Assembly (NCBI GenBank): GCA_016700095.1
Contig: CP065002.1
Span: forward strand, 643,667 to 707,666
DNA length: 64,000 bases
Direction: 5' to 3'
Source of the DNA: Candidatus Woesebacteria bacterium
GTDB taxonomy: Bacteria; Patescibacteriota; Microgenomatia; UBA8517
The translations under genes were made by a program, and so were the position numbers. Position 1 is the stretch's first letter. Every line of letters begins with the position of its first letter. Below the pieces are notes generated by a model that was not told the DNA's origin, did no database searches, and saw nothing but the letters and a program-made list of their open reading frames with translations. Below are positions 12,686 through 60,409 of this stretch, piece after piece.

Positions 12686-13597
12686 ATGAATGAACATCAT
12701 GAAAATCCCGAAAAAATTCAAAGCGGGAAACAGCTAACAGAACATGATAAAGTGTTGTTAAAAAATGGCGCCTTGAAAATAGCACAAGAAGTTATTCAAA
12801 ATTACCCGGGTAATCTTCCTGATGTAATAGTCCTTCCAGATACGTCAGCTCGACCTCTAAGAAATCTGTTTGACCCAATATTCAGGTCCATCGCACGACA
12901 GCGTGGAGTTCGTCCACCCGACTTTGTTTTTTTTCAGACACCTGGCGGCGCACAAAAAATTGCACTGCGAAAAGTAAATGATTGGGGTTCTATTGCTGAA
13001 GCAAAGACAGCAACTCAAGAGACACTAATAAATCTTAAAAAAGGTGCCACACTTTATAAATGGTTTAGAGATAGAAAAACACATCAAGAGAACGATAGAC
13101 AAATCCAAGAACAACGAAAAGTACTGCAGGAAGTTGATAAAGTACCAGAAATATTAAATCAGCAAAAATTACGAGCAAAAGAAATAGTTTCTTCATGTGC
13201 AACTCCAGATCCTAATATTGTAATAATCGATGACACAATGATTAGATCTGGACGCACGATTAAATTAATAAGAACAGCCTTTGGTGACAATACTGAAAAT
13301 ATTAGAGGATATGTTCTAACTGCGCACGAGCCTCTTGCGAATAATGTATTTAGTGCGCAGGAAATTGATATAAATTCACCAGACGCCGTGCATCCATTGG
13401 ATTATATGAGGGATAATCCTGATCATGAAGGTAGTCTCCGTGATGCTTATGGAGTGGAAAAGTCAGATGTGCTTATTGATCCTTATGTACAAGTAATACG
13501 ACCTCGTTCAAAACAAACGAAAATACTTAGGCGAGAAATGAGTCAAATAGGAAAAGATATTGCAAAAAAGTTGCGGGAAGATGGTTATTCGAATTAG
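12686..13597 (+). CDS. Atypical phosphoribosyltransferase-fold (PRT-like) protein, hypothetical
   Basis: IVIIDDTMIRSGRT resembles the PRPP-binding loop VLLVDDVITTGGT. The rest has no clear match. Confidence 0.35.
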   Translation: MNEHHENPEKIQSGKQLTEHDKVLLKNGALKIAQEVIQNYPGNLPDVIVLPDTSARPLRNLFDPIFRSIARQRGVRPPDFVFFQTPGGAQKIALRKVNDWGSIAEAKTATQETLINLKKGATLYKWFRDRKTHQENDRQIQEQRKVLQEVDKVPEILNQQKLRAKEIVSSCATPDPNIVIIDDTMIRSGRTIKLIRTAFGDNTENIRGYVLTAHEPLANNVFSAQEIDINSPDAVHPLDYMRDNPDHEGSLRDAYGVEKSDVLIDPYVQVIRPRSKQTKILRREMSQIGKDIAKKLREDGYSN

Positions 13598-13770
13598 TAA
13601 ATATATTTGTAATCATAACTAACCATACATCACTTCAAATATCCCTTGTAGGGTTGTATAATTAGAAACCGTTTATGTATTTTTATAAAGAAATCAAGTA
13701 GTTTTGAAAAGAAATATAGAATACAGTGAACAGTAAAGTAATTTTAAAGTAGCGTAGTCAAATTTGACGC

Positions 13771-13845
13771 GCGGGAGTAGCTCAGTGGTAGAGCGTCTCG
13801 TTGCCAACGAGAAGGTCGCGGGTTCAATCCCCGTCTCCCGCTCCA
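13771..13845 (+). tRNA. tRNA-Gly (anticodon GCC) with genomically encoded CCA
   Basis: GCGGGAGTAGCTCAGTGGTAGAGC, anticodon loop UU-GCC-AA, T-arm GCGGGTTCAATCCCCGT. The 3' end is ...CTCCCGC-T-CCA. Confidence 0.8.
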
Positions 13846-13896
13846 TGTGACAATTAACTACGGAAATGTACACAAAGTTACTTGACAAATACAATT

Positions 13897-15343: not shown

Positions 15344-16204
15344 CTAAATTGAAACTTTCATCCAAATTGGATAGTGATCAGAGAGATTTCCATATTTTTC
15401 CTCAGTTAATACTTTGAATTCCTCTAATTTCACTTGGCTGTTTCCAAATGCATAATCAATCCTCAATATCGGTTCGTCGGTTGGAAGAGGAAACAATTTT
15501 GCAGGGACAGTATTTCCCTTACTTAATCCCAAATCAACAAAACCATTATTTACAAGTAATTTAGTTACTTCTCCTCTTTCCATTTCAGTAAGAGATGCTT
15601 CCATGCTTTTCATCGGGCCAGGGTATTTTTGGGCAAGTTCGTTCAGATTATTTACGGTCTCAGTTAAATCTTGCTCATCGAAAGTATTTAAATCGCCCGT
15701 AATTATGGTTGGGATATTTGGATCAACCAATTTTAAAACGGTCTGAGTTTGTTTAATCCTTGTGTCTTCACTTACATCATCAAAATAAACAGAAAATACA
15801 TCTATTCCTACAATGTGGGTTTTTATGGCATTTCTGGTTGCAAGACAAACAGTTTGAATTTCCGTTCCAGCGACTCGAGAGAAAACAGTAATGCCATTGT
15901 CATGCCCCTTTTTTATTAATCTTTGATCATTAAGTTTAACGGATTGTACGCAGGGGTATTCAAATATGTGTTTTAAATCATCTGGTGTAAAAACTTCTGT
16001 CCAACGATAGGTATCAACAAGACTAACAATGTCCGGTTTTAGTTCTTTAATGGCACGAGCCAAATTAACAATTCGCTTGGGATTTTTTTCGGTGCTTCCA
16101 TAATCGCTAAATCCACCGCTTAAAATATTCCAAGATATGATTTCTAACGACATATTATTTTGTCGATTTCTGTGTTTAAACCGAATCATAAATTGTACCA
16201 TCAA
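15344..16204 (-). CDS. Endonuclease/exonuclease/phosphatase (EEP) family protein
   Basis: ISWNILSGG...DIVSLVDTYRW and C-terminal SDHYPIWMKV. The first 17 codons lie inside repeat B1, so the real start is probably the Met at about 16153. Confidence 0.7.
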   Translation of the reverse strand: MMVQFMIRFKHRNRQNNMSLEIISWNILSGGFSDYGSTEKNPKRIVNLARAIKELKPDIVSLVDTYRWTEVFTPDDLKHIFEYPCVQSVKLNDQRLIKKGHDNGITVFSRVAGTEIQTVCLATRNAIKTHIVGIDVFSVYFDDVSEDTRIKQTQTVLKLVDPNIPTIITGDLNTFDEQDLTETVNNLNELAQKYPGPMKSMEASLTEMERGEVTKLLVNNGFVDLGLSKGNTVPAKLFPLPTDEPILRIDYAFGNSQVKLEEFKVLTEEKYGNLSDHYPIWMKVSI

Positions 16205-16272
16205 TTCTTCTTAAGTAAGCAAAGCTTAAGATAAATCAAAAGACACCTTTACCACAGAGATCATTCGGTAAT
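16178..16272 (+). repeat. Intergenic element B1 (about 95 nt, imperfect terminal inverted repeats AACCGAATCAT / ATCATTCGGTAA)
   Basis: About 95% identical to 19428-19511. Confidence 0.6.
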
Positions 16273-16306
16273 AGGATAGTAACATATTTTTAGGTCGTTA
16301 AGAAAT

Positions 16307-18187: not shown

Positions 18188-18475
18188 TTAGCATATTTTT
18201 CGATCTTTGTGACGTTTGCCGAATGCTTCAAGAAATAGAAATGGATTTATTTTCTCAAGATAGTCTTCGAATACGTTTAGTTGTAAAATAACGTCAGCTG
18301 TTACGTAATAGCGAAGAATTATTTTTACCGCTGTTGCAAATGACATATCAGAATGTTTGAGTAGATATGATTTGATATCGTCATCAAGATCAAATAGGTC
18401 CGAGCCAATTACGGTGACCAGCTCCATATGACAATTAACTACAGAAATGTACACAAAGTTACTTGACAAATACAT
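18188..18475 (-). CDS. Small hypothetical protein, paralog of 17163..17426
   Basis: See 17163. The first 17 codons lie in the duplicated 58-bp segment, so the real start may be the MELVTV Met at about 18427. Confidence 0.4.
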   Translation of the reverse strand: MYLSSNFVYISVVNCHMELVTVIGSDLFDLDDDIKSYLLKHSDMSFATAVKIILRYYVTADVILQLNVFEDYLEKINPFLFLEAFGKRHKDRKIC

Positions 18476-19402: not shown

Positions 19403-19427
19403 AGACACCTTATGTTCAAACCGAATC

Positions 19428-19511
19428 ATAAGTTGTACCATCAATTCTTCTTAAGTAAGCAAAGCTTAAGGTAAATCAAAAGACACCTTCACCACAGAGA
19501 TCATTTGGTAA
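19428..19511 (+). repeat. Intergenic element B2
   Basis: Near-identical to B1. Lies between convergent genes. Confidence 0.6.
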
Positions 19512-19546
19512 ACTGATTATAACTTGAAAACTGTGTATTTGAAGTT

Positions 19547-28437: not shown

Positions 28438-28457
28438 GCGCCCTTGTAGTTTAATGG
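28438..28457 (+). other. 20-nt duplicate of the 5' end of tRNA-Arg(UCG) (GCGCCCTTGTAGTTTAATGG), about 60 nt upstream of the tRNA
   Basis: Direct repeat of 28497-28516. The segment does not fold as a tRNA. Confidence 0.6.
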
Positions 28458-28497
28458 TTAAGCAAAGCTTGTTGATTAAACTATTTCAAGCCTACAT

Positions 28498-28569
28498 GCC
28501 CTTGTAGTTTAATGGATAGAACACTGGTCTTCGGAACCAGATATGGGGGTTCGACTCCTCCCGGGGGCA
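28498..28569 (+). tRNA. tRNA-Arg (anticodon UCG)
   Basis: GCCCTTGTAGTTTAATGGATAGAAC, anticodon loop CU-UCG-GA, T-arm GGGGGTTCGACTCCTCC, acceptor with two G-U pairs. Confidence 0.7.
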
Positions 28570-28597
28570 CACAATATATATTAAGTATATTACTTTC

Positions 28598-28860
28598 TGA
28601 TACTCGTTTTACTCGTAATAAGCATCTTGATACTCGTTTTACTCGCAATAAGAATCTTGATACTCGTTTTACTCGTAATAAGAACCTTGATACTCGTTTT
28701 ACTCGTAATAAGAACCTTGATACTCGTTTTACTCGCAATAAGCATCTTGATACTCGTTTTACTCGTAATAAGAACCTTGATACTCGTTTTACTCGTAATA
28801 AGCATCTTGATACTCGTTTTACTCGTAATAAGAACCTTGATACTCGTTTTACTCGTATTA
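28598..28860 (+). repeat. Tandem array of a 30-bp unit (TGATACTCGTTTTACTCG[T/C]AATAAG[A/C]A[A/T]C[C/T]T), 8.8 copies, no spacers
   Basis: Read directly. Units differ at 3-4 positions only. The array generates the artefactual repeat ORFs on both strands. Confidence 0.9.
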
Positions 28861-28915
28861 GAACACTGGTCTTTGCGAACCAGATATGGGGGTTTACACT
28901 CCTTCCGGGGGCACA
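28861..28915 (+). other. Degenerate copy of the 3' half of tRNA-Arg(UCG), from anticodon stem to acceptor
   Basis: GAACACTGGTCTTTGCGAACCAGATATGGGGGTTTACACTCCTTCCGGGGGCA versus the tRNA GAACACTGGTCTTCGGAACCAGATATGGGGGTTCGACTCCTCCCGGGGGCA. Confidence 0.7.
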
Positions 28916-29201: not shown

Positions 29202-31121
29202 ATGAAAACAAATAAAAATACCAGTGTCTTAATGATGGCATTCGGCGCACTTGGCGTGGTGTATGGTGACATTGGTACATCCCCACTTTATGCAATTAAA
29301 GAAATATTTTTTGGAATTCACCATCACCTGGAGATTGAAACACTAAACGTCTTGGGTGCGATATCATTGGTATTTTGGGCAATAACGGTTATTGTTTCTT
29401 TCAAGTACATCGTTTTTGTGCTGAGAGCAGACAACGAAGGCGAAGGTGGTGTATTTGCTCTTTATAGTTTAATTTCAACGATCAAATCGAGATTTAAAAG
29501 AATATTTTCGGCATTGTTGGTTTTAGGTGCAGGTTTACTGTTTGGAGATGGGATAATTACACCTGCCATAAGCGTAGTATCCGCAGTTGAAGGACTAAAT
29601 GTTCTTACAAGCGATTTTGAACATTATGTCGTGCCTATTACAATTGTCATTCTTACCGGCCTTTTTGCTATTCAAAGTAGGGGTACGGCTAAACTTGGAA
29701 AAATATTTGGACCAATTGTTTTAACTTGGTTTATTTGTATTGGAACCATTGGTCTTTGGCATACTTTACAAACACCTGAGATTTTAAAAGCGATCAATCC
29801 AATTTATATTATTCATTTTGTTAACCACCAGTCCATAAAACACATCATGGTGATATTGGGTTCCGTAATGCTAGTTGTAACTGGAGGTGAAGCAATGTAC
29901 GCAGACATGGGGCATTTTGGTAGAACACCTATTCGCATGAGTTGGTTTTGAGTTGCAATGCCAGCATTACTTTTAAATTATTTTGGCCAAGGGGCGTTTC
30001 TTTTGTCCGGTCAGCAAGTAATTAATAGTAATTTATTTTTTAGCCTGTATCCAAATTGGGCTCTAATTCCAATGGTCGTTTTGGCTACCCTTGCAACCAT
30101 AATTGCATCGCAGGCATTAATTACAGGTGCATTTTCTTTGACCACTCAAGCTATTAATCTTAAATTATTGCCTTTCACGAAAACAATTCATACACATGAA
30201 CACCATGAAGGCCAAATATATGTTCCTTTTGTAAATTGGGCATTATATGTGGGATGCATTAGTTTGGTTATTGTATTTAAATCCAGCAGTAACATGGCAG
30301 CTGCATATGGATTAGCAGTATCTCTTGTAATGTTTATAACTACCTTAGTTATGATCGAGGTAACCATTGATAAATGGAACTGGTCAAAAATAAAAGCCCT
30401 TTCGTTATTTGTACCCCTGGCTTTGATTGACTTAAGCTTTTTGTTGTCTAATTCAGTTAAGTTTTTTGTAGGTGGTTATGTGCCGTTAATGATTGCCCTT
30501 TCACTATATGTAATTATGAAATCGTGGAATTGGGGTGAAAAACATACCGAGCATGCGTTACGTGATTTAGGTACGTTAACAATTAAAAACCTAGTTGACA
30601 TAAAAAAGACAGCAAAACACTTCGTCGATAAATCGGTGGTCTTCATGTCCTCGGAAAATATACTGGACGAAAATAGTACGGTTTCTACACTTGAACAAGT
30701 ATACTGGGAAAGAGTTGGTATGTTACCCAAACACATACTATTACTTCATATATCCAGGTTGAAAGTACCTCACGCTACACAAAAAGAATATCAGGTGAAA
30801 AAATTTTTTGAAGACGATAAGAAAGGAAGTATTACTTTAGTAAAATACAAGTATGGTTTTATGGAAGAACCTCGTATTAATGAAATACTTGTACGTCTTG
30901 CTAAACACAAAGAAATTAACATAGATATCCATCCTTCGCAGTGGTCGGTACACGTTCTTAAGCCCAATATCCAACTTGAAAGAAGACTGAGTCCAAAGGA
31001 ATATATAAAACACAAGCTATATAGATTCATTGCAAATAACGCAACGACGCAGGATCAGTTCTGGGATTTGGACGCCGCTGCAAATCTAACAATTCAGTCT
31101 ATTCCGGTTAGGATACTATAG
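29202..31121 (+). pseudogene. kup: KUP/HAK/KT potassium transporter interrupted by a single in-frame TGA (29949-29951); both parts are in the same frame
   Basis: GVVYGDIGTSPLY signature; ...[30 protein letters not shown] aligns with Kup ...[21 protein letters not shown] without a gap. Confidence 0.7.
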
Positions 31122-31256: not shown

Positions 31257-33218
31257 ATGCACGGAATCATAATAAACATAGGGTTTGTAAGTGTCTTTTT
31301 GTTAATTATTGCAATTCTACGGCATATTAGTTCAAAATCCAGTTTTCCCTATACTGTTGGTCTTTTGTTATTTGGATTTACCGCTCAGTTTTTGGTTGAT
31401 TATTTTACCCTTCCTCTTCATATAAAACTAAACACGGATATTATTTATATGATAATTTTACCCATACTTCTGTTTGAGGCTGCAATCCAAATAAACATTC
31501 ATCAATTCAAAATCCAGTTTAAAACGATAACTTTTCTTGCCACCTTTGGGATTATCGTTTCGACACTAACAGTGGCACTTATATTAAATATATTCACGGG
31601 TATGCCAATTTATGCAGCTTTATTATTTGGATCGTTGATATCTGCTACCGATCCGATTGCGGTACTTGCGATTTTTAAAAATCTAGGGGCACCAAGGAGG
31701 TTGGGTTTAATTGCTGATGGAGAGAGCATGTTTAATGATGCCACGGCTGTCATCTTATTTAAAATTCTACTTGGAATTGCGTTAGGGTCGTCATATTTTA
31801 CGGCTCACACAATGTTGGCGGGTTTTTTTCACTTCGTATATATTTTTCTTGGAAGCATGGTGTTTGGTGTACTAATTGCCTTTGTCGCGATATGGATAAT
31901 TGAAAAAATACACACGGATAGATTGATTGAAGCATCGATAACAATCGTTTTGGCTTATACCTCGTTTGCAGCAGCCGAGCATTTTTTCCACCTTTCGGGC
32001 GTAATTGCCTGTGTCATTTCCGCAGTTGTGTTGGGCAATTTTGGGAAGGCAAAAATATCCGACAAAATCATGCCTTTTGTGGTGGAAACCTGGGAATACT
32101 TGGGTTTTATTGCTTTATCAATCGTATTTTTTCTCGCTTCCTTTACGTTAAAACTTAATATCTTTAGTTTGAATTATATTTTTATTGCCTATGCAATCAT
32201 TGCAATGCTTGCGGCAAGATCACTTTCTGTATACTTGACGCTTTTAATTACAAACACTACTCGCTTTTTTAGAAACGAGCCTAACGTTCCACTTTCGTGG
32301 CAACATGTTCTAAACTGGGGTGGAATAAGAGGAGTGATACCACTCGTTCTCGTTTTTTCCATACCGCCAACTTATCCGTACTATGAAGTAATATTTGATC
32401 TAACCATGGGGTGTCTTTTGTTTACTTTATTTGTAAATGCACTAACGATAAAGCCTTTATTGTTTAAATTGGGTTTGCATTTACCGGATCGCATGGAAGA
32501 ACTGGCCAAAAAACAAAACAAACTTGTCCACGATGAGAAATTGTATGGGATTGTTGGAAAGTATAAACAGGGTGTTTTGACGAGTGATCTGGTTGGCGAA
32601 TGGAAACAAAAAATTACTAACGATAAAAATAGCATCTTAAGTGAAATTATTATTGAAAAAGACATGCAGACAATTGAGAATAGTCTGAAGTACGAAGCCT
32701 TAAAGATTCAAAAAGCAGAATTAGAAAAATTGCTCTCAATCGGACGAGTCGGATATATGTCAGCATATGAATTTGAAGCTCAGCTTGATTTACAGATTGA
32801 CGCACTTGAATACCCGGAAGTATATTCGGGTAAGGCGGTGAGTATGGATCAGGCAGTGAATTCTCTGAGTAGTTTGCGTCTCAGATTGTCGCGTATGAGG
32901 AAAAAATTATTACATTTGCCTTTACTTAAATATTTTGCCAAAGATGTCAATAATTCACTTGTTTTGACAAGATGGGAACTTCTCGAGTCAAGGATGTTAA
33001 CAACCGTACCCGTTATGGAGTATTTAAATGTACTGGCTAAGCTAATTAGCGAACCTACATGGAAGGAAACAATCGATAAACTGCGAGAGGATTACTTGGC
33101 ATTAAATACCAAAAACGAGAGTGAGATGGCGAAACTAAAAGAAAAATACGAGGTTGTAATATTTAACCGTAAACAAAACATCTTTAATAAGATTATTGAT
33201 GATGAGGCGTTGGCTTGA
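31257..33218 (+). CDS. CPA1-family Na+/H+ (cation/proton) antiporter with long cytoplasmic C-terminal domain
   Basis: LFGSLISATDPIAVLAIF and GESMFNDATAV motifs, about 12 TM, plus a 250-aa soluble tail. Confidence 0.8.
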   Translation: MHGIIINIGFVSVFLLIIAILRHISSKSSFPYTVGLLLFGFTAQFLVDYFTLPLHIKLNTDIIYMIILPILLFEAAIQINIHQFKIQFKTITFLATFGIIVSTLTVALILNIFTGMPIYAALLFGSLISATDPIAVLAIFKNLGAPRRLGLIADGESMFNDATAVILFKILLGIALGSSYFTAHTMLAGFFHFVYIFLGSMVFGVLIAFVAIWIIEKIHTDRLIEASITIVLAYTSFAAAEHFFHLSGVIACVISAVVLGNFGKAKISDKIMPFVVETWEYLGFIALSIVFFLASFTLKLNIFSLNYIFIAYAIIAMLAARSLSVYLTLLITNTTRFFRNEPNVPLSWQHVLNWGGIRGVIPLVLVFSIPPTYPYYEVIFDLTMGCLLFTLFVNALTIKPLLFKLGLHLPDRMEELAKKQNKLVHDEKLYGIVGKYKQGVLTSDLVGEWKQKITNDKNSILSEIIIEKDMQTIENSLKYEALKIQKAELEKLLSIGRVGYMSAYEFEAQLDLQIDALEYPEVYSGKAVSMDQAVNSLSSLRLRLSRMRKKLLHLPLLKYFAKDVNNSLVLTRWELLESRMLTTVPVMEYLNVLAKLISEPTWKETIDKLREDYLALNTKNESEMAKLKEKYEVVIFNRKQNIFNKIIDDEALA

Positions 33219-33277
33219 GAATGTTCCCTTGCTAATATTTACTTTGCCCAAAGCTATGTCGAAATGGTAAAATACCT

Positions 33278-33311
33278 CTAATATTAAGTTCGACTTAATA
33301 TGTATTTATTT
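33278..33311 (+). terminator. Putative intrinsic terminator: AT-rich hairpin (TAATATTAAGT-tcg-ACTTAATAT) followed by a T-tract
   Basis: Sits 60 nt after the antiporter stop. The stem is weak (AT only). Confidence 0.3.
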
Positions 33312-33408
33312 TAAGGGTGGTAGTCTTATTGACACACCTAAAAACTTATACTTTAACATTTGCGGGTAAGCTCGCCTGCAATAGGCAGTGCGTTAGTAGT
33401 TGCAGGAA

Positions 33409-33867
33409 GGTAGACACATAAGCTTGTCCGAACAAGGTGTGAGGAGGAGTGAAACGACAAATCTTGTCAAGCTTTGCTTGCAGGTGATTTGATTTTTAGA
33501 TAAATAATATGCCGTGGTGGTGGAATCGGTAGACACATAAGCTTGTCCGAACAAGGTGTGAGGAGGAGTGAAACGACAAATCTTGTCAAGCTTTGCTTGC
33601 AGGTGATTTGATTTTTAAATAAATAATATGCCGTGGTGGTGGAATCGGTAGACACGCATGCTTGTCCGAACAAGGTGTGAGGAGGAGTGAAACGACAAAT
33701 CTTGTCAAGCTTTGCTTGCAGTGATTTGATTTTTAAAATAAATAATATGCCGTGGTGGTGGAATCGGTAGACACGCAAGCTTGTCCGAACAAGGTGTGAG
33801 GAGGAGTGAAACGACAAATCTTGTCAAGCTTTGCTTGCAGGTGATTTGATTTTTAAATAAATAATAT
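33409..33867 (+). repeat. Tandem 119-bp repeat (3 full units at 33511, 33630 and 33749, plus a degenerate leading copy); each unit begins with the first 31 nt of tRNA-Leu(UAA)
   Basis: Unit: GCCGTGGTGGTGGAATCGGTAGACAC(A/G)(T/C)A(A/T)G + CTTGTCCGAACAAGGTGTGAGGAGGAGTGAAACGACAAATCTTGTCAAGCTTTGCTTGCAGGTGATTTGATTTTTAAATAAATAATAT. Units are more than 95% identical. Confidence 0.9.
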
Positions 33868-33953
33868 GCCGTGGTGGTGGAATCGGTAGACACGCAAGAC
33901 TTAAAATCTTGTGACCATTATTGGTCGTGCGGGTTCAAGTCCCGCCCTCGGCA
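33868..33953 (+). tRNA. tRNA-Leu (anticodon UAA), type II; U5:U68 mismatch in the acceptor stem
   Basis: GCCGTGGTGGTGGAATCGGTAGACACGCAAGA-CUUAAAA-TCTTG, variable stem GACCA/TGGTC, T-arm GCGGGTTCAAGTCCCGC. Confidence 0.7.
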
Positions 33954-34064
33954 CAATTTAGATGATGGCTATTAGTTTTTAGTTATCTGAAAAAGATTAG
34001 CTATTTACCTACATACACGTGTATGCGTTGAAAGCGAAGTTTGTTGGAATTTAATAATTAATAT

Positions 34065-34137
34065 TCGGGGTGTAGCTCAGTTGGCAGAGTGCGCGCTTTG
34101 GGAGCGTGAGGTCGCCGGTTCGAGCCCGGCCACCCCG
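34065..34137 (+). tRNA. tRNA-Pro (anticodon UGG)
   Basis: CGGGGTGTAGCTCAGTTGGCAGAGT, anticodon loop UU-UGG-GA, T-arm GCCGGTTCGAGCCCGGC. Confidence 0.75.
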
Positions 34138-34147
34138 ACACTAAATA

Positions 34148-55425: not shown

Positions 55426-55616
55426 AAGTTTATCACCCTACTTTATCACCCTACAGGTGAAATGAATTAACACAGCTCACTTTTTAGAATTAGTACGGTA
55501 ACTTAGAGTTAGTTGCCATCGGACGTTCATATATAGATATACCTTAAACTTACAGAATGCTTATTAAGAACAGTCCCAAGTATATAGCACATCACTAAAA
55601 TCTAGTTTTTGAAGAT

Positions 55617-56363
55617 TTACTGGTTTAATAAAAAGTTTGCTACTCCCACATCCCCCCACATTATTTCAGCAATATTTTGCTTTGGATAATACTCACTGTC
55701 CATTTGAAACAATAAGGTAGAATAATCTGTGAATTTATCATTGCCTCTGGGATCATCTTGAGTGAAATTGGGATAACCTCCTATTTTATGACCGGTTGGA
55801 TCAGAAAATTTAAGATATGTTTTAACTAACTCACTGTAAAAATCATCAAAAGCTTTGTCGTAATTAATTTCACTTTCATATCGAAAATCAACATAGGGAA
55901 TAGATGCGATACTTCTCTTGAATGTTAAAGAAAACTCATTTTCTAATACAAAGGTTTCTTTTGGGGTAGGCCAATCATAATCTAAAATCGGATTTGTATT
56001 AATGAATTGTTCTTTTGAAATATACAAGACCCTGAAATTATCTTGTTTTGTTCTGTTGGCAAAATCCAAACCCCTTAAATTGTTATCAGATATAAACATT
56101 TGTAGAATCCCTGTTTCCGGAAAATCAGCAAGTTTTGGTACTTCTTCAAAATTTATCTGAGCCAAAAATATCAACTTTTGACCTGCGGCATTTTTGGGGT
56201 ACTCAACTTCATCTATTAGCAATGGCTTACCCCCAAATTTGCTTTGAGTTGGAGATAACTCCTCGGAGACAGCTTGACTTTTAATAGCAATATATTCCTT
56301 AAAAGTTTTATTAATTCTATCTTCGTATTGTTTTAATATATTGGGTAATTCAGGTAAATCCAT
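55617..56363 (-). CDS. DUF1963 (YwqG-like) domain protein
   Basis: KFGGKP....LIFLAQINFEE....ETGILQMF ... GHKIGGYPNFTQDDP. Confidence 0.6.
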   Translation of the reverse strand: MDLPELPNILKQYEDRINKTFKEYIAIKSQAVSEELSPTQSKFGGKPLLIDEVEYPKNAAGQKLIFLAQINFEEVPKLADFPETGILQMFISDNNLRGLDFANRTKQDNFRVLYISKEQFINTNPILDYDWPTPKETFVLENEFSLTFKRSIASIPYVDFRYESEINYDKAFDDFYSELVKTYLKFSDPTGHKIGGYPNFTQDDPRGNDKFTDYSTLLFQMDSEYYPKQNIAEIMWGDVGVANFLLNQ

Positions 56364-56592
56364 GTTTAAATATTAACAATATATTAATATTACTACGAAC
56401 ATTTATTAAAAAGAATACTTGGAGTAACAAGGTATATATCTAATATGGATTATATCACCCTACAGGTGAAATGAATTAATACAGCTCACTTTTAAGAATT
56501 AATACAGTAACTTAGGATCAGCTACCATCGGACATTCGAACATGGATATACCTTAATCCTACAGAAAGCTTTATAAGAACAGTCACAAAATG

Positions 56593-57141
56593 GTTTATCA
56601 CCCTACAGGTGAAATGAATTAACACAGCTCACTTTTTAGAATTAGTACGGTAACTTAGAGTTAGTTGCCATCGGACGTTCATATATAGATATACCTTAAA
56701 CTTACAGAATGCTTATTAAGAACAGTCCCAAGTATATAGCACATCACTAAAATCTAGTTTTTGAAGATTTACTGGTTTAATAAAAAAGTTTGCTACTCCC
56801 ACATCCCCCCACATTATTTCAGCAATATTTTGCTTTGGATAATACTCACTGTCCATTTGAAACAATAAGGTAGAATAATCTGTGAATTTATCATTGCCTC
56901 TGGGATCATCTTGAGTGAAATTGGGATAACCTCCTATTTTATGACCGGTTGGATCAGAAAATTTAAGATATGTTTTAACTAACTCACTGTAAAAATCATC
57001 AAAAGCTTTGTCGTAATTAATTTCACTTTCATATCGAAAATCAACATAGGGAATAGATGCGATACTTCTCTTGAATGTTAAAGAAAACTCATTTTCTAAT
57101 ACGAAGGTTTCTTTTGGGGTAGGCCAATCATAATCTAAAAT
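56593..57141 (+). repeat. About 550-bp segmental duplication of 55428-55988 (repeat core plus tRNA-like module plus the 3' 372 bp of the DUF1963 gene)
   Basis: More than 98% identical. One 13-nt and one 1-nt indel. Confidence 0.85.
56770..57141 (-). pseudogene. Truncated duplicate (C-terminal about 120 codons) of the DUF1963 gene, carrying a 1-nt insertion in a poly-A run
   Basis: Copy of 55617-55988. It lacks its 5' two-thirds and promoter. An A8-to-A9 frameshift lies near the 3' end. Confidence 0.7.
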
Positions 57142-57386
57142 AAATCCTCAACAAAATTAATCAAATTCTTTAATTGAAGAATTAATCTATTTATCCATAT
57201 CCTTTGTGTGAAGATTAGCTTATATTCACCACTTACCACAAAAGACAATCTTTACCTCTCTCGAGTTTATAATATTATCCCCCAATAAAAGCGTTAATAG
57301 TCATATCAATACAAAATGTCTTATTGATATTTTGCTTGGTAAGCTTGGAATTCCTATAAAGTAAAAAACCTGTCATTTTTTTTAGT

Positions 57387-57959
57387 TTGCTATATAATAT
57401 GTTTATGGTAGAAAAAGAGGCAAATTATTATGGCGATCCCGTTAACGACTTTGAATTAAGAATAGTTCAAAAGCCAAAAGAAGAAAAAGGGCAAACTTAT
57501 GATAATGGCATTCAAGGTGAAACTGACGGCTTGTTAGATGTTGTCAGAAAAATTGTTCCAGAAGATGTTTTAGTTAAAATGGGTGGGCAAATCACAACAG
57601 TTTCTCTGGGCGGGACATTTAGTGAGAAAAGTATCGTCTTACCAAACACACCTCTCGTGCGCGATCCCGAGAAAGATGCGAGATCTCATGGAGGCGGAGC
57701 TAGTCCTGGAATGGGTGGTATGCGAACAGAACAAACGTTTTATCACGATGGAACTCAGGTAGATACAGTTGCCCCAGAGGCTCCCAAAAAGAGTAGACTT
57801 TCTGGTTTATTTGGTCGGGGTACTAAAACACCTCCGAAAAGATTGGTAAATGGTGCGCGAAACATAGTATCAGTAACCATTGGAAGCGACGATGAAATAA
57901 AAGATTTTAAAGTTAATAATATCGTCGTATACGAATATATTGATACCCCCGATCAGTAA
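57387..57959 (+). CDS. Hypothetical protein (Gly-rich central region)
   Basis: ORF only. Confidence 0.35.
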   Translation: MLYNMFMVEKEANYYGDPVNDFELRIVQKPKEEKGQTYDNGIQGETDGLLDVVRKIVPEDVLVKMGGQITTVSLGGTFSEKSIVLPNTPLVRDPEKDARSHGGGASPGMGGMRTEQTFYHDGTQVDTVAPEAPKKSRLSGLFGRGTKTPPKRLVNGARNIVSVTIGSDDEIKDFKVNNIVVYEYIDTPDQ

Positions 57960-57976
57960 TTTGCTATAATCTCCAC

Positions 57977-58183
57977 ATGTGTGAAGCAAAACTAAGATAT
58001 TCCCAACGTTTAACAAATGAGGAAAAACTAGCAATACAGACTTGTCCTGGATTTATTTCAGCCCAAAACAGATCATTGGCGGATTATTATGAACCCAAAA
58101 GATGTGCAGATTGTAATTTAACTTCGACATTCACACCTTCCATTAATCAAATTAAAATTGAGGGAAAGTGTCCAAAAAAATAA
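57977..58183 (+). CDS. Small Cys-containing hypothetical protein
   Basis: 68 aa, 5 Cys. Confidence 0.3.
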   Translation: MCEAKLRYSQRLTNEEKLAIQTCPGFISAQNRSLADYYEPKRCADCNLTSTFTPSINQIKIEGKCPKK

Positions 58184-58607
58184 ATAGTTTTCTATATCTT
58201 ATTAAACTTCATCACAATTAATCTGCAATTAATATAAACTGAAACAAAGTTAGCAAAACGCTATTATTTCACTATTCCAGGGGAAATATCTCAAATTTCA
58301 CTAGTTCTCCATTAACGTAGGTGCAATGATACTGATGAGAACTTTTGTTATCAACCATATGAAGTAGGAAATGGAGAATGTTCTCGACCACTGCACTATT
58401 ATTCCTGTCCACCGTCCACTCAAGTGGTTTCCACTTTAAAATGCCCTCTCTTATTTCCCTACTTACAAAAGGTTTATCACCCTACAGGAGATTATCACCC
58501 TACAGGTGAAATGAATTAACACAGCTCACTTTTAAGTGAAATACATTATCACCCTACAGGTGAAATGAATTAACACAGCTCACTTTTAAGAATTAATACG
58601 GTAACTT

Positions 58608-58640
58608 AGAGTGGATGGCTGGACGACGTTCGAACCTATT
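58608..58640 (+). other. Degenerate partial copy of the tRNA-His 3' end (T-arm plus acceptor region), following repeat copy 58547
   Basis: GTGGATGGCTGGACGACGTTCGAACC versus the authentic GGTGGCTGACGAGTCTCGAACCCGCG at 60335. Confidence 0.55.
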
Positions 58641-58761
58641 TCGTGCCTATTTCAGTAGATTATCAGGTGATTAAAAGCATGTTATTACTTCAAGAAAAAG
58701 CTCAGTTTACCAATGTTTGACTGAACAGTAGAGTGCGAATTTCCTTCAGGCTAGAAAACAT

Positions 58762-59340
58762 TTAATCTGCAAAAACAGGGGTAATTTCAAAATTCACAGT
58801 CTTTATTCGCTGGTCAAGTTTTATAACTTTCAATTCATCTACAAATTCAATTACTGGTGCAGATGTTTCTTTTTCTAGAGATTTTTCGAGTTCCTCATTA
58901 TTGTAAAAACGGACAGATAATGATAAATCGTAATCACTACCAAGTTTCAAACTGTTTGGCCAAGGCTCCACAAATCTATACTTATAAACTCTTTTGCTAT
59001 TTGTCTCAGTTTCCAACCACACGCAATTATCTTGTCCTTTCTTGCATAATTCACTGCTTTGAATTCCAATGGCATCTTCACTGTCGTCATGTTTGGAAGT
59101 GGTTATACTTATGTTGTCATGCACTTGGTCACTATTTATCTGTTTATATATTATTGTTACTTCACCTTCAATAACATTGGAATTTTCATCTTCATCAATA
59201 ATGGAGTCTTTACTAATATCCTTCTTAGAAGGATTCTGTTTATTGTTGTTTGAAAAAAATGTTACTCCAACCCCAATCGCAACTATCATAGTTATTAAAA
59301 ACAAAAATAATGGTAATGCAAATCCTTTTTCATCTTTCAT
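58762..59340 (-). CDS. Hypothetical secreted or membrane-anchored protein
   Basis: N-terminal TM/signal. Acidic. Confidence 0.4.
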   Translation of the reverse strand: MKDEKGFALPLFLFLITMIVAIGVGVTFFSNNNKQNPSKKDISKDSIIDEDENSNVIEGEVTIIYKQINSDQVHDNISITTSKHDDSEDAIGIQSSELCKKGQDNCVWLETETNSKRVYKYRFVEPWPNSLKLGSDYDLSLSVRFYNNEELEKSLEKETSAPVIEFVDELKVIKLDQRIKTVNFEITPVFAD

Positions 59341-59465
59341 GTATTAATGTTAATATTTACTTATTCAATATGCAAATACTAAGATGAGCAACTCGAACTA
59401 ATTATAACGGATATGACAAAGCTTTATGAAGTATTTGGCAGGAAAATGGCATATAATTATTCATT

Positions 59466-60071
59466 ATGAATATCAATCAAAAAGTAAAGGCAGGCTACAA
59501 CATTGCCGCTAAAAACTATACTTCAGAATTTCGAGACCAATTCAAAAATGAAAAACATCTAGCTAAGTTGGTAGATGTTTTGTCTCCAAGATCAAGCATT
59601 CTTGATGTTGGCTGTGGAGCCGGTAAACCAATTGATAGCTATCTTGTTTCAAAAGGTATGAAAGTAACAGGTATCGATATTTCTGAAGCCCAAATAGAGT
59701 TGGCAAAATCATATGTACCAGAAGCTAATTACGAAGTCCGTGACATGTCTGAGCTACAAGATGGTGAATATGAAGTAGATGCCGTTGTTTCTTTTTACGC
59801 CATTTTTCACACCCCAAGAGAGAACCATGCTGACTTACTGAAGAAGTTCAAGTCTTTTCTGAAATCAGATGGATACTTGCTTATTACGATGGGAGCTAAT
59901 GATTGGGTAGGCAAAGAAGATAATTTCTGTGGATCAGAAATGTATTGGAGTCATTACGGTGCAGATAAAAATAAGGAGCTGATTGAAAAAGCAGGGTTTG
60001 ACATCATTTTCTCTGAGGTCGATGATGCAGGCGGAGAAAAACATTTGATTATATTAGCCAAAGCTAAGTAG
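59466..60071 (+). CDS. Class I SAM-dependent methyltransferase
   Basis: ILDVGCGAGKPI (motif I) and an acidic-residue motif II. Confidence 0.7.
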   Translation: MNINQKVKAGYNIAAKNYTSEFRDQFKNEKHLAKLVDVLSPRSSILDVGCGAGKPIDSYLVSKGMKVTGIDISEAQIELAKSYVPEANYEVRDMSELQDGEYEVDAVVSFYAIFHTPRENHADLLKKFKSFLKSDGYLLITMGANDWVGKEDNFCGSEMYWSHYGADKNKELIEKAGFDIIFSEVDDAGGEKHLIILAKAK

Positions 60072-60334
60072 GAATAGTTTCTATTTGGGGTCGGTTGCCA
60101 TCGGATGTTAGTATATCACCCTACAGGTGAAATGAATTAACACAGCTCACTTTTTAGAATTAGTACGGTAACTTAGGATCAGCTACCATCGGACATTCGA
60201 ACATGGATATACCTTAATCCTACAGAAAGCTTTATGAGAACAGTCACAAAATGGATTTATTGAAAAAAGATTATCACCCTACAGGTGAAATGAATTAACA
60301 CAGCTCACTTTTAAGAATTAATACAGTAACTTAG

Positions 60335-60409
<75 letters not shown>

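Follow-up and report, generated by a model that had tools for sequence, protein, structure and literature searches.

We analyzed a 64,000-nucleotide stretch of a Candidatus Woesebacteria chromosome (GenBank assembly GCA_016700095.1, contig CP065002.1, positions 643,667 to 707,666; hereafter, the window), in which an intact gene for tRNA-Leu(UAA) is preceded by a tandem array of 119-bp units that each begin the tRNA anew and then depart into an 88-nt module. We consider the array to be a lineage-specific local tandem duplication, similar to a minisatellite, that has left inert pseudo-fragments of the tRNA gene upstream of the complete copy, and we give this explanation a probability of roughly 0.6. 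Here, we describe the array and the evidence for its origin, and then weigh whether its copy number is real, whether its units could have a function, and whether comparable layouts at other tRNA genes point to a different kind of event.

Structure of the array

Tandem Repeats Finder (TRF) identified a single tandem array at 33409-33898 (period 119, 4.1 copies, 97% matches, score 915), and a separate repeat search of the window gave the same register. It comprises three full units, plus one that is truncated on its left side. In each full unit, a restart of the tRNA, with 26-31 nt identical to the gene, is followed by the 88-nt module. The array directly adjoins the 5′ side of the intact tRNA-Leu(UAA), with the last unit reaching to 33867 and the tRNA starting from 33868. 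The parts are as follows:

33409-33422, plus strand: left-truncated tRNA fragment of unit 0, GGTAGACAC plus ATAAG, equivalent to tRNA nt 18-31
33423-33510, plus strand: 88-nt module copy 0, variant TTTTTAGAT
33511-33541, plus strand: tRNA 5′ restart 1, with nt 1-26 as in the tRNA and nt 27-31 reading ATAAG
33542-33629, plus strand: 88-nt module copy 1
33630-33660, plus strand: tRNA 5′ restart 2, with nt 1-29 as in the tRNA and nt 27-31 reading GCATG
33661-33748, plus strand: 88-nt module copy 2, with GG to G and AAA to AAAA relative to the other copies
33749-33779, plus strand: tRNA 5′ restart 3, with 31/31 nt as in the tRNA
33780-33867, plus strand: 88-nt module copy 3, the true immediate 5′ flank of the gene
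33868-33954 (ARAGORN; end alternatively at 33953), plus strand: intact class II tRNA-Leu(UAA) with a U5:U68 mismatch and A73 (ARAGORN and Rfam)

These results largely agree with an earlier, sequence-only reading of the locus, which had placed the full units at 33511, 33630, and 33749, and had stated that only the fourth restart continues into a complete tRNA; of these restarts, the one at 33868-33954 alone is called as a tRNA by ARAGORN and Rfam. A 65-nt core of the module is present in three exact copies (0.00 expected by chance), while the remaining copy, in unit 2, has two 1-nt indels in this core. The left edge differs from the earlier description, which had a degenerate copy starting at about 33409 and the array extending to 33385. 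Clear homology of the leftmost unit does start at 33409 (GGTAGACAC), perhaps at 33405, but the unit is truncated rather than a full degenerate copy. A 12/14 match such as that of its tRNA fragment would arise within 300 nt by chance with a probability of ~1e-3 (own calculation). The extension to 33385 is not robust, and we reject a degenerate acceptor/D arm left of 33409, since the alignment depends on gap costs (p = 0.92 with strict costs, p = 0.03 with lenient costs).

Comparison with relatives

The array is specific to this lineage. The next-best homologue of the adjacent Na+/H+ antiporter is 46% identical, and a search of genome contigs gave at most 49%; the best other PyrD is 65% identical and lies on contig L199, while two further PyrD relatives (L200-L203) are not syntenic. 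Thus, neither the antiporter nor the PyrD homologues yielded close relatives for a comparison of copy number. L199 retains the local order of VKOR, tRNA-Gly, PyrD, LytR_C, and phosphorylase genes. Its tRNA-Leu(UAA) adjoins the VKOR gene but is inverted, and the region upstream of tRNA-Leu in the window is a rearrangement junction relative to L199. This nearest syntenic relative contains neither the module nor a tRNA restart, so the array is lineage-specific. As a control only, because the metagenome pattern is too general, we looked for loci with two copies of the 5′ 26-mer of the tRNA, and found none in 141 loci among the matches listed (120 metagenome, 21 viral).

Probable origin by local tandem duplication

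We propose that a 119-bp segment, comprising the 88-nt immediate 5′ flank and tRNA nt 1-31, was duplicated in tandem, and that slipped-strand mispairing or unequal crossing-over between units then expanded it to about four copies. As one end of the duplicated segment would lie in the gene and the other outside it, such an event would produce one complete gene plus truncated fragments, and selection for the heavily used tRNA-Leu(UAA) would keep the last, complete copy. The upstream fragments would then be inert pseudo-tRNA pieces, which cannot fold as tRNAs and probably amount to extra 5′ leader or spacer. If the tRNA promoter lies within the 88 nt, it would have been multiplied as well.

The perfect head-to-tail register and 97% identity of the units count in favor of duplication. 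Along the array, nt 27-31 read ATAAG, ATAAG, GCATG, and GCAAG, followed by GCAAG in the tRNA itself, a gradient that fits stepwise duplication of neighbors or homogenization. The same genome has a second tRNA-adjacent tandem array, in which a 30-bp unit is repeated 9 times behind tRNA-Arg, which suggests that local slippage is active in this genome. Comparable tandem arrays that combine part of a tRNA with its flank are found in L046 and at the plastid trnF gene (both described below), and the lack of an RNA-family or structure signal in the units, the absence of the module from L199 and from the other sequences searched, and the need to retain an intact tRNA-Leu(UAA) also agree with duplication. 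The sequence-only reading had listed slipped replication of a promoter-plus-5′-tRNA unit among its possible causes; of these causes, slipped duplication is the best supported for the amplification. The promoter is not borne out, as a sigma-70 promoter scan finds no promoter-like site within the units.

Several points weigh against this explanation. The array opens with the 14-nt tRNA fragment (33409-33422), whereas a clean duplication of flank plus nt 1-31 should open with flank; thus, either a further unit has been mostly deleted, or an older fragment or repeat was already present. At tRNA-Arg(TCG) in the window and at tRNA genes on contigs L029, L169, and L176 (described below), a 5′ fragment is duplicated but the flank ahead of the fragment is not, which fits insertion or repair better than simple slippage. 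The slippage or crossover mechanism is one that we infer, and the neutrality of the fragments is likewise inferred and is assumed rather than observed. Finally, the copy number, including the exact count of four, rests on a single assembly, and Logan short-read contig L001 (SRR11674018), which represents the same strain and has 3 mismatches to the window over 14.4 kb, all of them within the array, shows one module/unit and is shorter by exactly 357 bp, or three units.

Copy number

The short-read contig bears on whether the multi-copy array could be an assembly artefact or an inflated count, with the real genome holding one module between the 14-nt fragment and the tRNA. Besides the 357 bp missing from L001, such an artefact would account for the GG to G and AAA to AAAA changes in unit 2, which look like residual long-read homopolymer error and suggest that the assembly is a long-read one. 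However, all L001 k-mers up to k = 81 occur in the window, so the one-unit contig is exactly the walk that a k = 31 graph assembler would produce after loop collapse. L001 also ends inside the 30-bp tandem array after tRNA-Arg, and therefore does not resolve tandem repeats. The sequence-only reading had named collapse of the array in reads as the observation that would speak for an artefact; a short-read contig does show a single unit, yet it is compatible with a four-unit graph. As a valid collapsed walk of such a graph, L001 neither refutes nor confirms the array.

The junctions between tRNA nt 1-31 and the module are more informative. The window has three of them, all different (ATAAG, GCATG, and GCAAG), while a one-unit genome has none, and an assembler cannot invent three junctions without supporting reads. 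This argues for at least two real units, which we consider very likely; an artefactual array or inflated count is very unlikely.

The intact tRNA-Leu(UAA)

The complete gene scores 58.5 bits in Rfam, against a cut-off of 29, with an alignment that includes all arms. It has a long variable arm and a UAA anticodon, with A73 read from the sequence, and apart from U5:U68 it is a canonical class II tRNA. The U5:U68 mismatch pointed out in the sequence-only reading is real: Infernal marks the pair as non-standard, so the acceptor stem is not fully paired. The mismatch, from which a doubt about functionality had been drawn, still allows a strong tRNA score.

Out of 122 tRNA-Leu genes with the same 5′ pattern, 70 have the majority pair A5-U68, and four have U:U at 5:68, namely, the gene in this genome and three unrelated tRNA-Leu(GAG). 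The tRNA-Leu(UAA) of syntenic relative L199 has G5:U68, which makes U5 the derived state here; U5 is also present in all of the upstream fragments. UUA is the commonest leucine codon (29%), UUA and UUG together make up 49% of leucine codons, and the window contains no tRNA-Leu(CAA). The genome therefore has to retain an intact copy of tRNA-Leu(UAA).

Content of the repeated module

The module copy next to the gene carries the following small features:

33780-33793, plus strand: small hairpin CTTGT-CCGA-ACAAG in module copy 3, about -4.8 kcal/mol including flanks
33799-33804, plus strand: AGGAGG in unit 3
33806-33844, plus strand: 12-codon GTG open reading frame (ORF) in unit 3
33814-33849, plus strand: terminator-like hairpin in module copy 3, -10.6 kcal/mol
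33850-33854, plus strand: run of five U in module copy 3, followed by an AT-rich tail

Because of these features, we considered whether each unit is a functional mini-gene maintained in multiple copies, encoding either a small RNA that runs from the tRNA 5′ half to the hairpin and U-run, or a 12-residue peptide. A -10.6 kcal/mol hairpin, UUUUU, and an AT-rich tract stand directly ahead of the next restart in every module, each module has a strong AGGAGG, and the units are kept ~97% identical, all of which would suit a mini-gene. Recent duplication, however, explains the high identity equally well, and the other lines of evidence do not favor a product. Beyond the lack of a promoter-like site in the units, the terminator-like hairpin was not called in a terminator scan, and on both strands the predicted folding of a unit is no more stable than that of shuffled sequence (z -0.43 and -0.76). 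An Rfam search at E ≤ 10 over 33200-34000 returned noise only (microRNA precursor family mir-969, plastid UTRs, and similar), and neither ARAGORN nor Rfam at E ≤ 10 gave a sub-threshold tRNA match within the units. Thus, the units are not tRNAs and do not belong to a known Rfam family. No homologue was found, and this includes the syntenic relative L199. For the same reasons (no Rfam match, folding at the level of shuffles, and no conservation in L199), the proposal that the units represent a family of tRNA-5′-half transcripts is not supported.

The peptide fares no better. The sequence-only reading had described a 12-codon mini-ORF starting with GTG six nucleotides after AGGAGG, and had judged it to be incidental. 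The ORF exists, but GTG follows AGGAGG by 1 nt, which is too close for a Shine-Dalgarno start, and the end of the ORF is frame-shifted in unit 2, so we agree that it is incidental. The hairpin that it had noted, CTTGT-CCGA-ACAAG, is present but weak. In sum, we regard a functional mini-gene as very unlikely.

Two further candidates for the module were rejected. It is not supported as the remainder of a decayed full tRNA copy, since the module and tRNA nt 32-87 share only the 9-nt AAATCTTGT (p = 0.03, or p = 0.11 with the 3′ flank included). It is also not a dispersed repeat: the search for the 88-nt module elsewhere that the sequence-only reading had suggested found none in the rest of the 64-kb window, and the module is likewise absent from 197 other fetched loci, IMG/VR, and GenBank phage records, where the tRNA part alone does match.

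One short piece of the module does recur. The 11-mer AAGCTTTGCTT forms a small AAGC-TTT-GCTT hairpin with a HindIII site (33825-33836 and every module copy). It occurs in reverse complement at 28460-28471, in the spacer upstream of tRNA-Arg(TCG), and also at 16217-16227 and 19457-19467, in both copies of a 111-nt intergenic repeat (16173-16283 and 19413-19523). For a given 11-mer, ~0.03 occurrences are expected by chance.

Similar layouts at other tRNA genes

A tRNA gene preceded by a copy of its own 5′ part is found at other loci. In our survey, upstream 5′ restarts occur at ~1% of 338 tRNAs in other loci (three clear cases), versus two of the 14 tRNAs in the window. The second case in the window is tRNA-Arg(TCG) at 28498-28570, which has an exact copy of its own nt 1-18 at 28440-28457, 58 nt upstream. 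The gene is followed by the 30-bp tandem array (~9 copies, 28598-28864), and past the array lies a degenerate copy of tRNA-Arg nt 20-73 (28859-28914, 89% identical, with indels in the anticodon and T loops) that continues into ~45 nt of similar 3′ flank. Together, the two tRNA-Arg fragments would represent one old tRNA split in the D loop around a complete new copy.

The clear cases outside the window share this layout. In L029 (901-1034; metagenome-assembled genome [MAG] JALWZS010000004, a Patescibacteria-like relative by its antiporter), the first 15 nt of tRNA-Pro(UGG) are copied 57 nt upstream, and the fragment sits 14 nt past TATAAT. In L176 (1868-2035; WBZX01004581), tRNA-Leu(CAG) is preceded by a copy of its own nt 1-29, and in L169 (2829-3033; Ga0209536_100140242), tRNA-Gly(GCC) is preceded by a copy of its own nt 1-28. 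The latter two break at nt 28-29, have a 34-39-nt AT-rich spacer after the upstream copy, and carry an insert in the D loop of this copy that contains a GC-rich perfect palindrome (CCTGCCTGCCGGCAGGCAGG; CCCCCGAGTACTCGGGGG). L176 also has TAGACA in the old fragment, 17 nt before TATAAA. In viral contig L189 (545-1146; IMG/VR UViG_3300040801_002079), a 28-nt tRNA-Leu 5′ fragment and an intact tRNA-Leu(UAG) flank a 161-aa ORF with a His-Me finger/HNH homing-endonuclease signature, which scores 26.9 bits for zf-His_Me_endon, below the cut-off of 27. The 3′ mirror image of the Leu array occurs in L046 (~13330-13813; Chloroflexia MAG CAVUOY010000010), where tRNA-Val(CAC) has five tandem 73-bp units downstream, each composed of the last 34 nt of the tRNA and a 39-nt trailer with a GC-rich hairpin.

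The upstream 5′ restarts are relevant to an alternative origin, in which recombination or the repair of a break within the tRNA gene left a footprint at the Leu locus that was later amplified as the 119-bp repeat. An event targeted to the tRNA gene (tDNA) would have regenerated an intact gene while duplicating its 5′ part around a short insert, which gives the order fragment-insert-fragment-rest; candidate events are the repair of a cut made by a nuclease and the integration, by a site-specific or Campbell-type route, of DNA that carries the 5′ part. The layouts at tRNA-Arg(TCG), L029, L176, and L169 are alike in this respect, and the spacer is not repeated ahead of the first fragment. In three cases, the break point is at the edge of the anticodon stem (nt 28-31), and the viral contig L189 places a homing-endonuclease-like ORF between the fragment and the intact gene. 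Additional support comes from the att-like repeats of tRNA 3′ fragments in the window, at tRNA-Gly(GCC) and tRNA-His, and from the rearrangement junction upstream of tRNA-Leu relative to L199. The U5:U68 pair could mark a chimeric gene, given G5:U68 in L199, but U5 is found in all upstream copies, so the mismatch is not diagnostic.

Other observations count against such an event. None of the 30 window ORFs scanned against Pfam is an integrase or recombinase, the locus is flanked by antiporter and VKOR genes, the insert is just 88 nt without an ORF of note, the module has no viral or phage match, and the sequence left of the 14-nt fragment is not convincing as an old acceptor/D arm. Weighing both sides, we judge a footprint origin to be unlikely, though the recurrence of upstream restarts keeps recombination or repair scars in tDNA, later amplified at Leu, alive as a minority reading. 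The more specific proposal of the sequence-only reading, an element integrating in the anticodon region, agrees with the fragment-spacer-fragment layout and with the 14-nt fragment at the left edge of the array, but it is not sustained by a region that has no integrase among the scanned ORFs, no viral match, and only 88 nt between repeats.

A broader idea is that the layout of 5′ fragment, short spacer, and intact tRNA is a signature left repeatedly at tRNA genes by a specific process directed at them. Cleavage or recombination would take place in the tDNA at the D loop or the anticodon-stem edge, and repair or integration would survive only where duplication of the 5′ part regenerated a complete gene. 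If so, a nuclease or recombinase that targets tDNA would be active in Patescibacteria, and the Leu locus would be its amplified scar and a mirror image of classical 3′ att duplications. We consider this quite improbable.

Repeats of tRNA 3′ ends were observed separately. On one metagenome contig (L101, 811-1153 and 12270-12601), the last 18-19 nt of tRNA-Leu(UAG) and of tRNA-Trp are each copied exactly ~180 nt downstream of the gene end, and the copies look like att-type repeats around very short inserts. In the window, a dispersed repeat at 55436-60356 has 6-7 copies, in each of which a 25-30-nt piece resembling a tRNA 3′ end precedes a conserved ~70-nt module (TAAGTTACYGTAYTAATTCT..GTGAGCTGTGTTAATTCATTTCACCTGTAGGGTGATAA on the minus strand). 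The genuine 3′ end of tRNA-His, with its trailer, makes up one of these copies (60334-60408, minus strand). Between neighboring copies lie accessory genes, one at a time (DUF1963, a methyltransferase, unknowns), an arrangement that recalls a tRNA-His island with stacked att remnants; an integrase was not found in this region. The same region includes a 300-nt exact direct repeat (55630-55929/56783-57082, 1153 bp apart). At tRNA-Gly(GCC), the 3′ end plus 48 nt downstream (13825-13893) is repeated 4.6 kb away (18406-18474), with a flank that is 92% identical and a tRNA-like part that matches at only 13/21 positions and has a different acceptor strand. Genes for NUDIX, 2-thiouracil desulfurase, TauE, Exo_endo_phos, and EamA lie between these repeats, and no integrase is present.

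Genomic setting

The array occupies the region between the stop of the Na+/H+ antiporter gene (33218) and tRNA-Leu(UAA), in a window with ~35% GC and 14 tRNA genes by ARAGORN; Rfam at the gathering threshold likewise reports 14 tRNAs only. The genes around the array are ordinary cellular ones, encoding Kup, the CPA1 antiporter, VKOR, a HAD hydrolase, a deaminase, and PyrD. The antiporter and PyrD each have a 100% identical NCBI protein assigned to Candidatus Woesebacteria. Exact-protein look-ups of VKOR, a 134-aa ORF, and a 116-aa minus-strand ORF in the array gave no match. Two features may relate to transcription of the locus:

33244-33273, plus strand: sigma-70-like match, TTGCCC-18-TAAAAT, TG-extended (promoter scan, consensus match only)
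34066-34139, plus strand: tRNA-Pro(UGG), co-oriented neighbor downstream of tRNA-Leu(UAA) (ARAGORN and Rfam)

The first is the only plus-strand sigma-70-like match near the array and lies upstream of all of it. If this candidate promoter is used, the entire array would be part of the 5′ leader of the tRNA-Leu precursor. The tRNA-Pro(UGG) gene is probably in one transcription unit with tRNA-Leu(UAA).

Other aspects of the surroundings stand apart from the array. The Kup potassium transporter is represented by two in-frame ORFs (29202-29951 and 29958-31121) separated by a single TGA at 29949-29951, and the split is identical in the independent contig L001; it could be either a pseudogene or a case of read-through/recoding. 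The cumulative GC skew has its maximum near 36-38 kb of the window, and gene orientation changes from all-plus (29.2-38.8 kb) to all-minus (38.8-49.9 kb), with the switch at about 38700. The skew peak and orientation switch would be consistent with replication terminating a few kb away from the array.

Comparison with known systems and implications

The closest known analogue is the plastid trnF(GAA) pseudogene arrays of Brassicaceae, Solanaceae, and Asteraceae, a likeness of kind and not of homology. There, the functional gene has 1-7 partial copies immediately on its 5′ side, arranged head to tail, with spacer or promoter-region sequence between them and a variable copy number (PMC3786074); the copies are 32-73 bp, centered on the anticodon domain, and usually without the acceptor stem. 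The Leu array similarly has head-to-tail parts of its parent tRNA, copies that are not tRNAs, and an intact parent gene abutted on its 5′ side. In contrast, its 119-bp copies retain the D arm along with the 5′ strands of the acceptor and anticodon stems; its host is a bacterial chromosome (Patescibacteria) instead of the plastid trnL-trnF spacer, and the sequences are unrelated. Regarding plastid-type variation in copy number, there is one unit in L001 versus four in the window, with L001 possibly collapsed.

Integrases of prophages, islands, and tycheposons leave att repeats made of tRNA fragments, and repeated events can stack such fragments (bioRxiv 10.1101/2020.12.28.424599). The Leu array also has a partial tRNA copy in direct orientation beside an intact tRNA. 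However, att repeats normally consist of the tRNA 3′ part, lie downstream, and flank kilobases of element DNA with an integrase nearby, whereas the Leu array repeats nt 1-31, upstream, around an 88-nt spacer and with no integrase among the ORFs scanned. In its perfect register, high identity, truncated or divergent edge unit, and short-read collapse, the array resembles bacterial minisatellites (variable-number tandem repeats) that arise by slipped-strand mispairing, but unlike an ordinary one, its unit straddles a gene boundary, and each copy restarts the tRNA.

Interrupted and split tRNA genes provide a last comparison. The group I intron of tRNA-Leu(UAA) in cyanobacteria and plastids interrupts the same tRNA species near the anticodon, between nt 34 and 35, and the split tRNA genes of Nanoarchaeum encode the 5′ half separately. 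The break in the Leu array instead comes after nt 31, and the 88-nt module has no match to Intron_gpI or any other Rfam family at E ≤ 10. Furthermore, a complete, uninterrupted tRNA-Leu follows the array, so neither splicing nor trans-joining is needed.

The Leu array thus adds a bacterial case to a kind of event that is already known, namely, tandem partial-tRNA pseudogene arrays or tandem repeats that straddle a gene boundary. In practical terms, such a repeat is collapsed by short-read graph assemblies (the k = 31 same-strain assembly loses 357 bp), its pseudo-tRNA starts could confuse annotation, and the array could serve as a strain-level copy-number marker. For the biology of these organisms, it indicates that partial-tRNA tandem arrays, which are known in plastids, also arise in a reduced bacterial genome, beside its most used leucine tRNA. 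If the recurring layout were instead the scar of a tDNA-targeting nuclease or recombinase, it would represent a 5′-side counterpart to classical att duplications and would provide a searchable signature of such activity in uncultured lineages.

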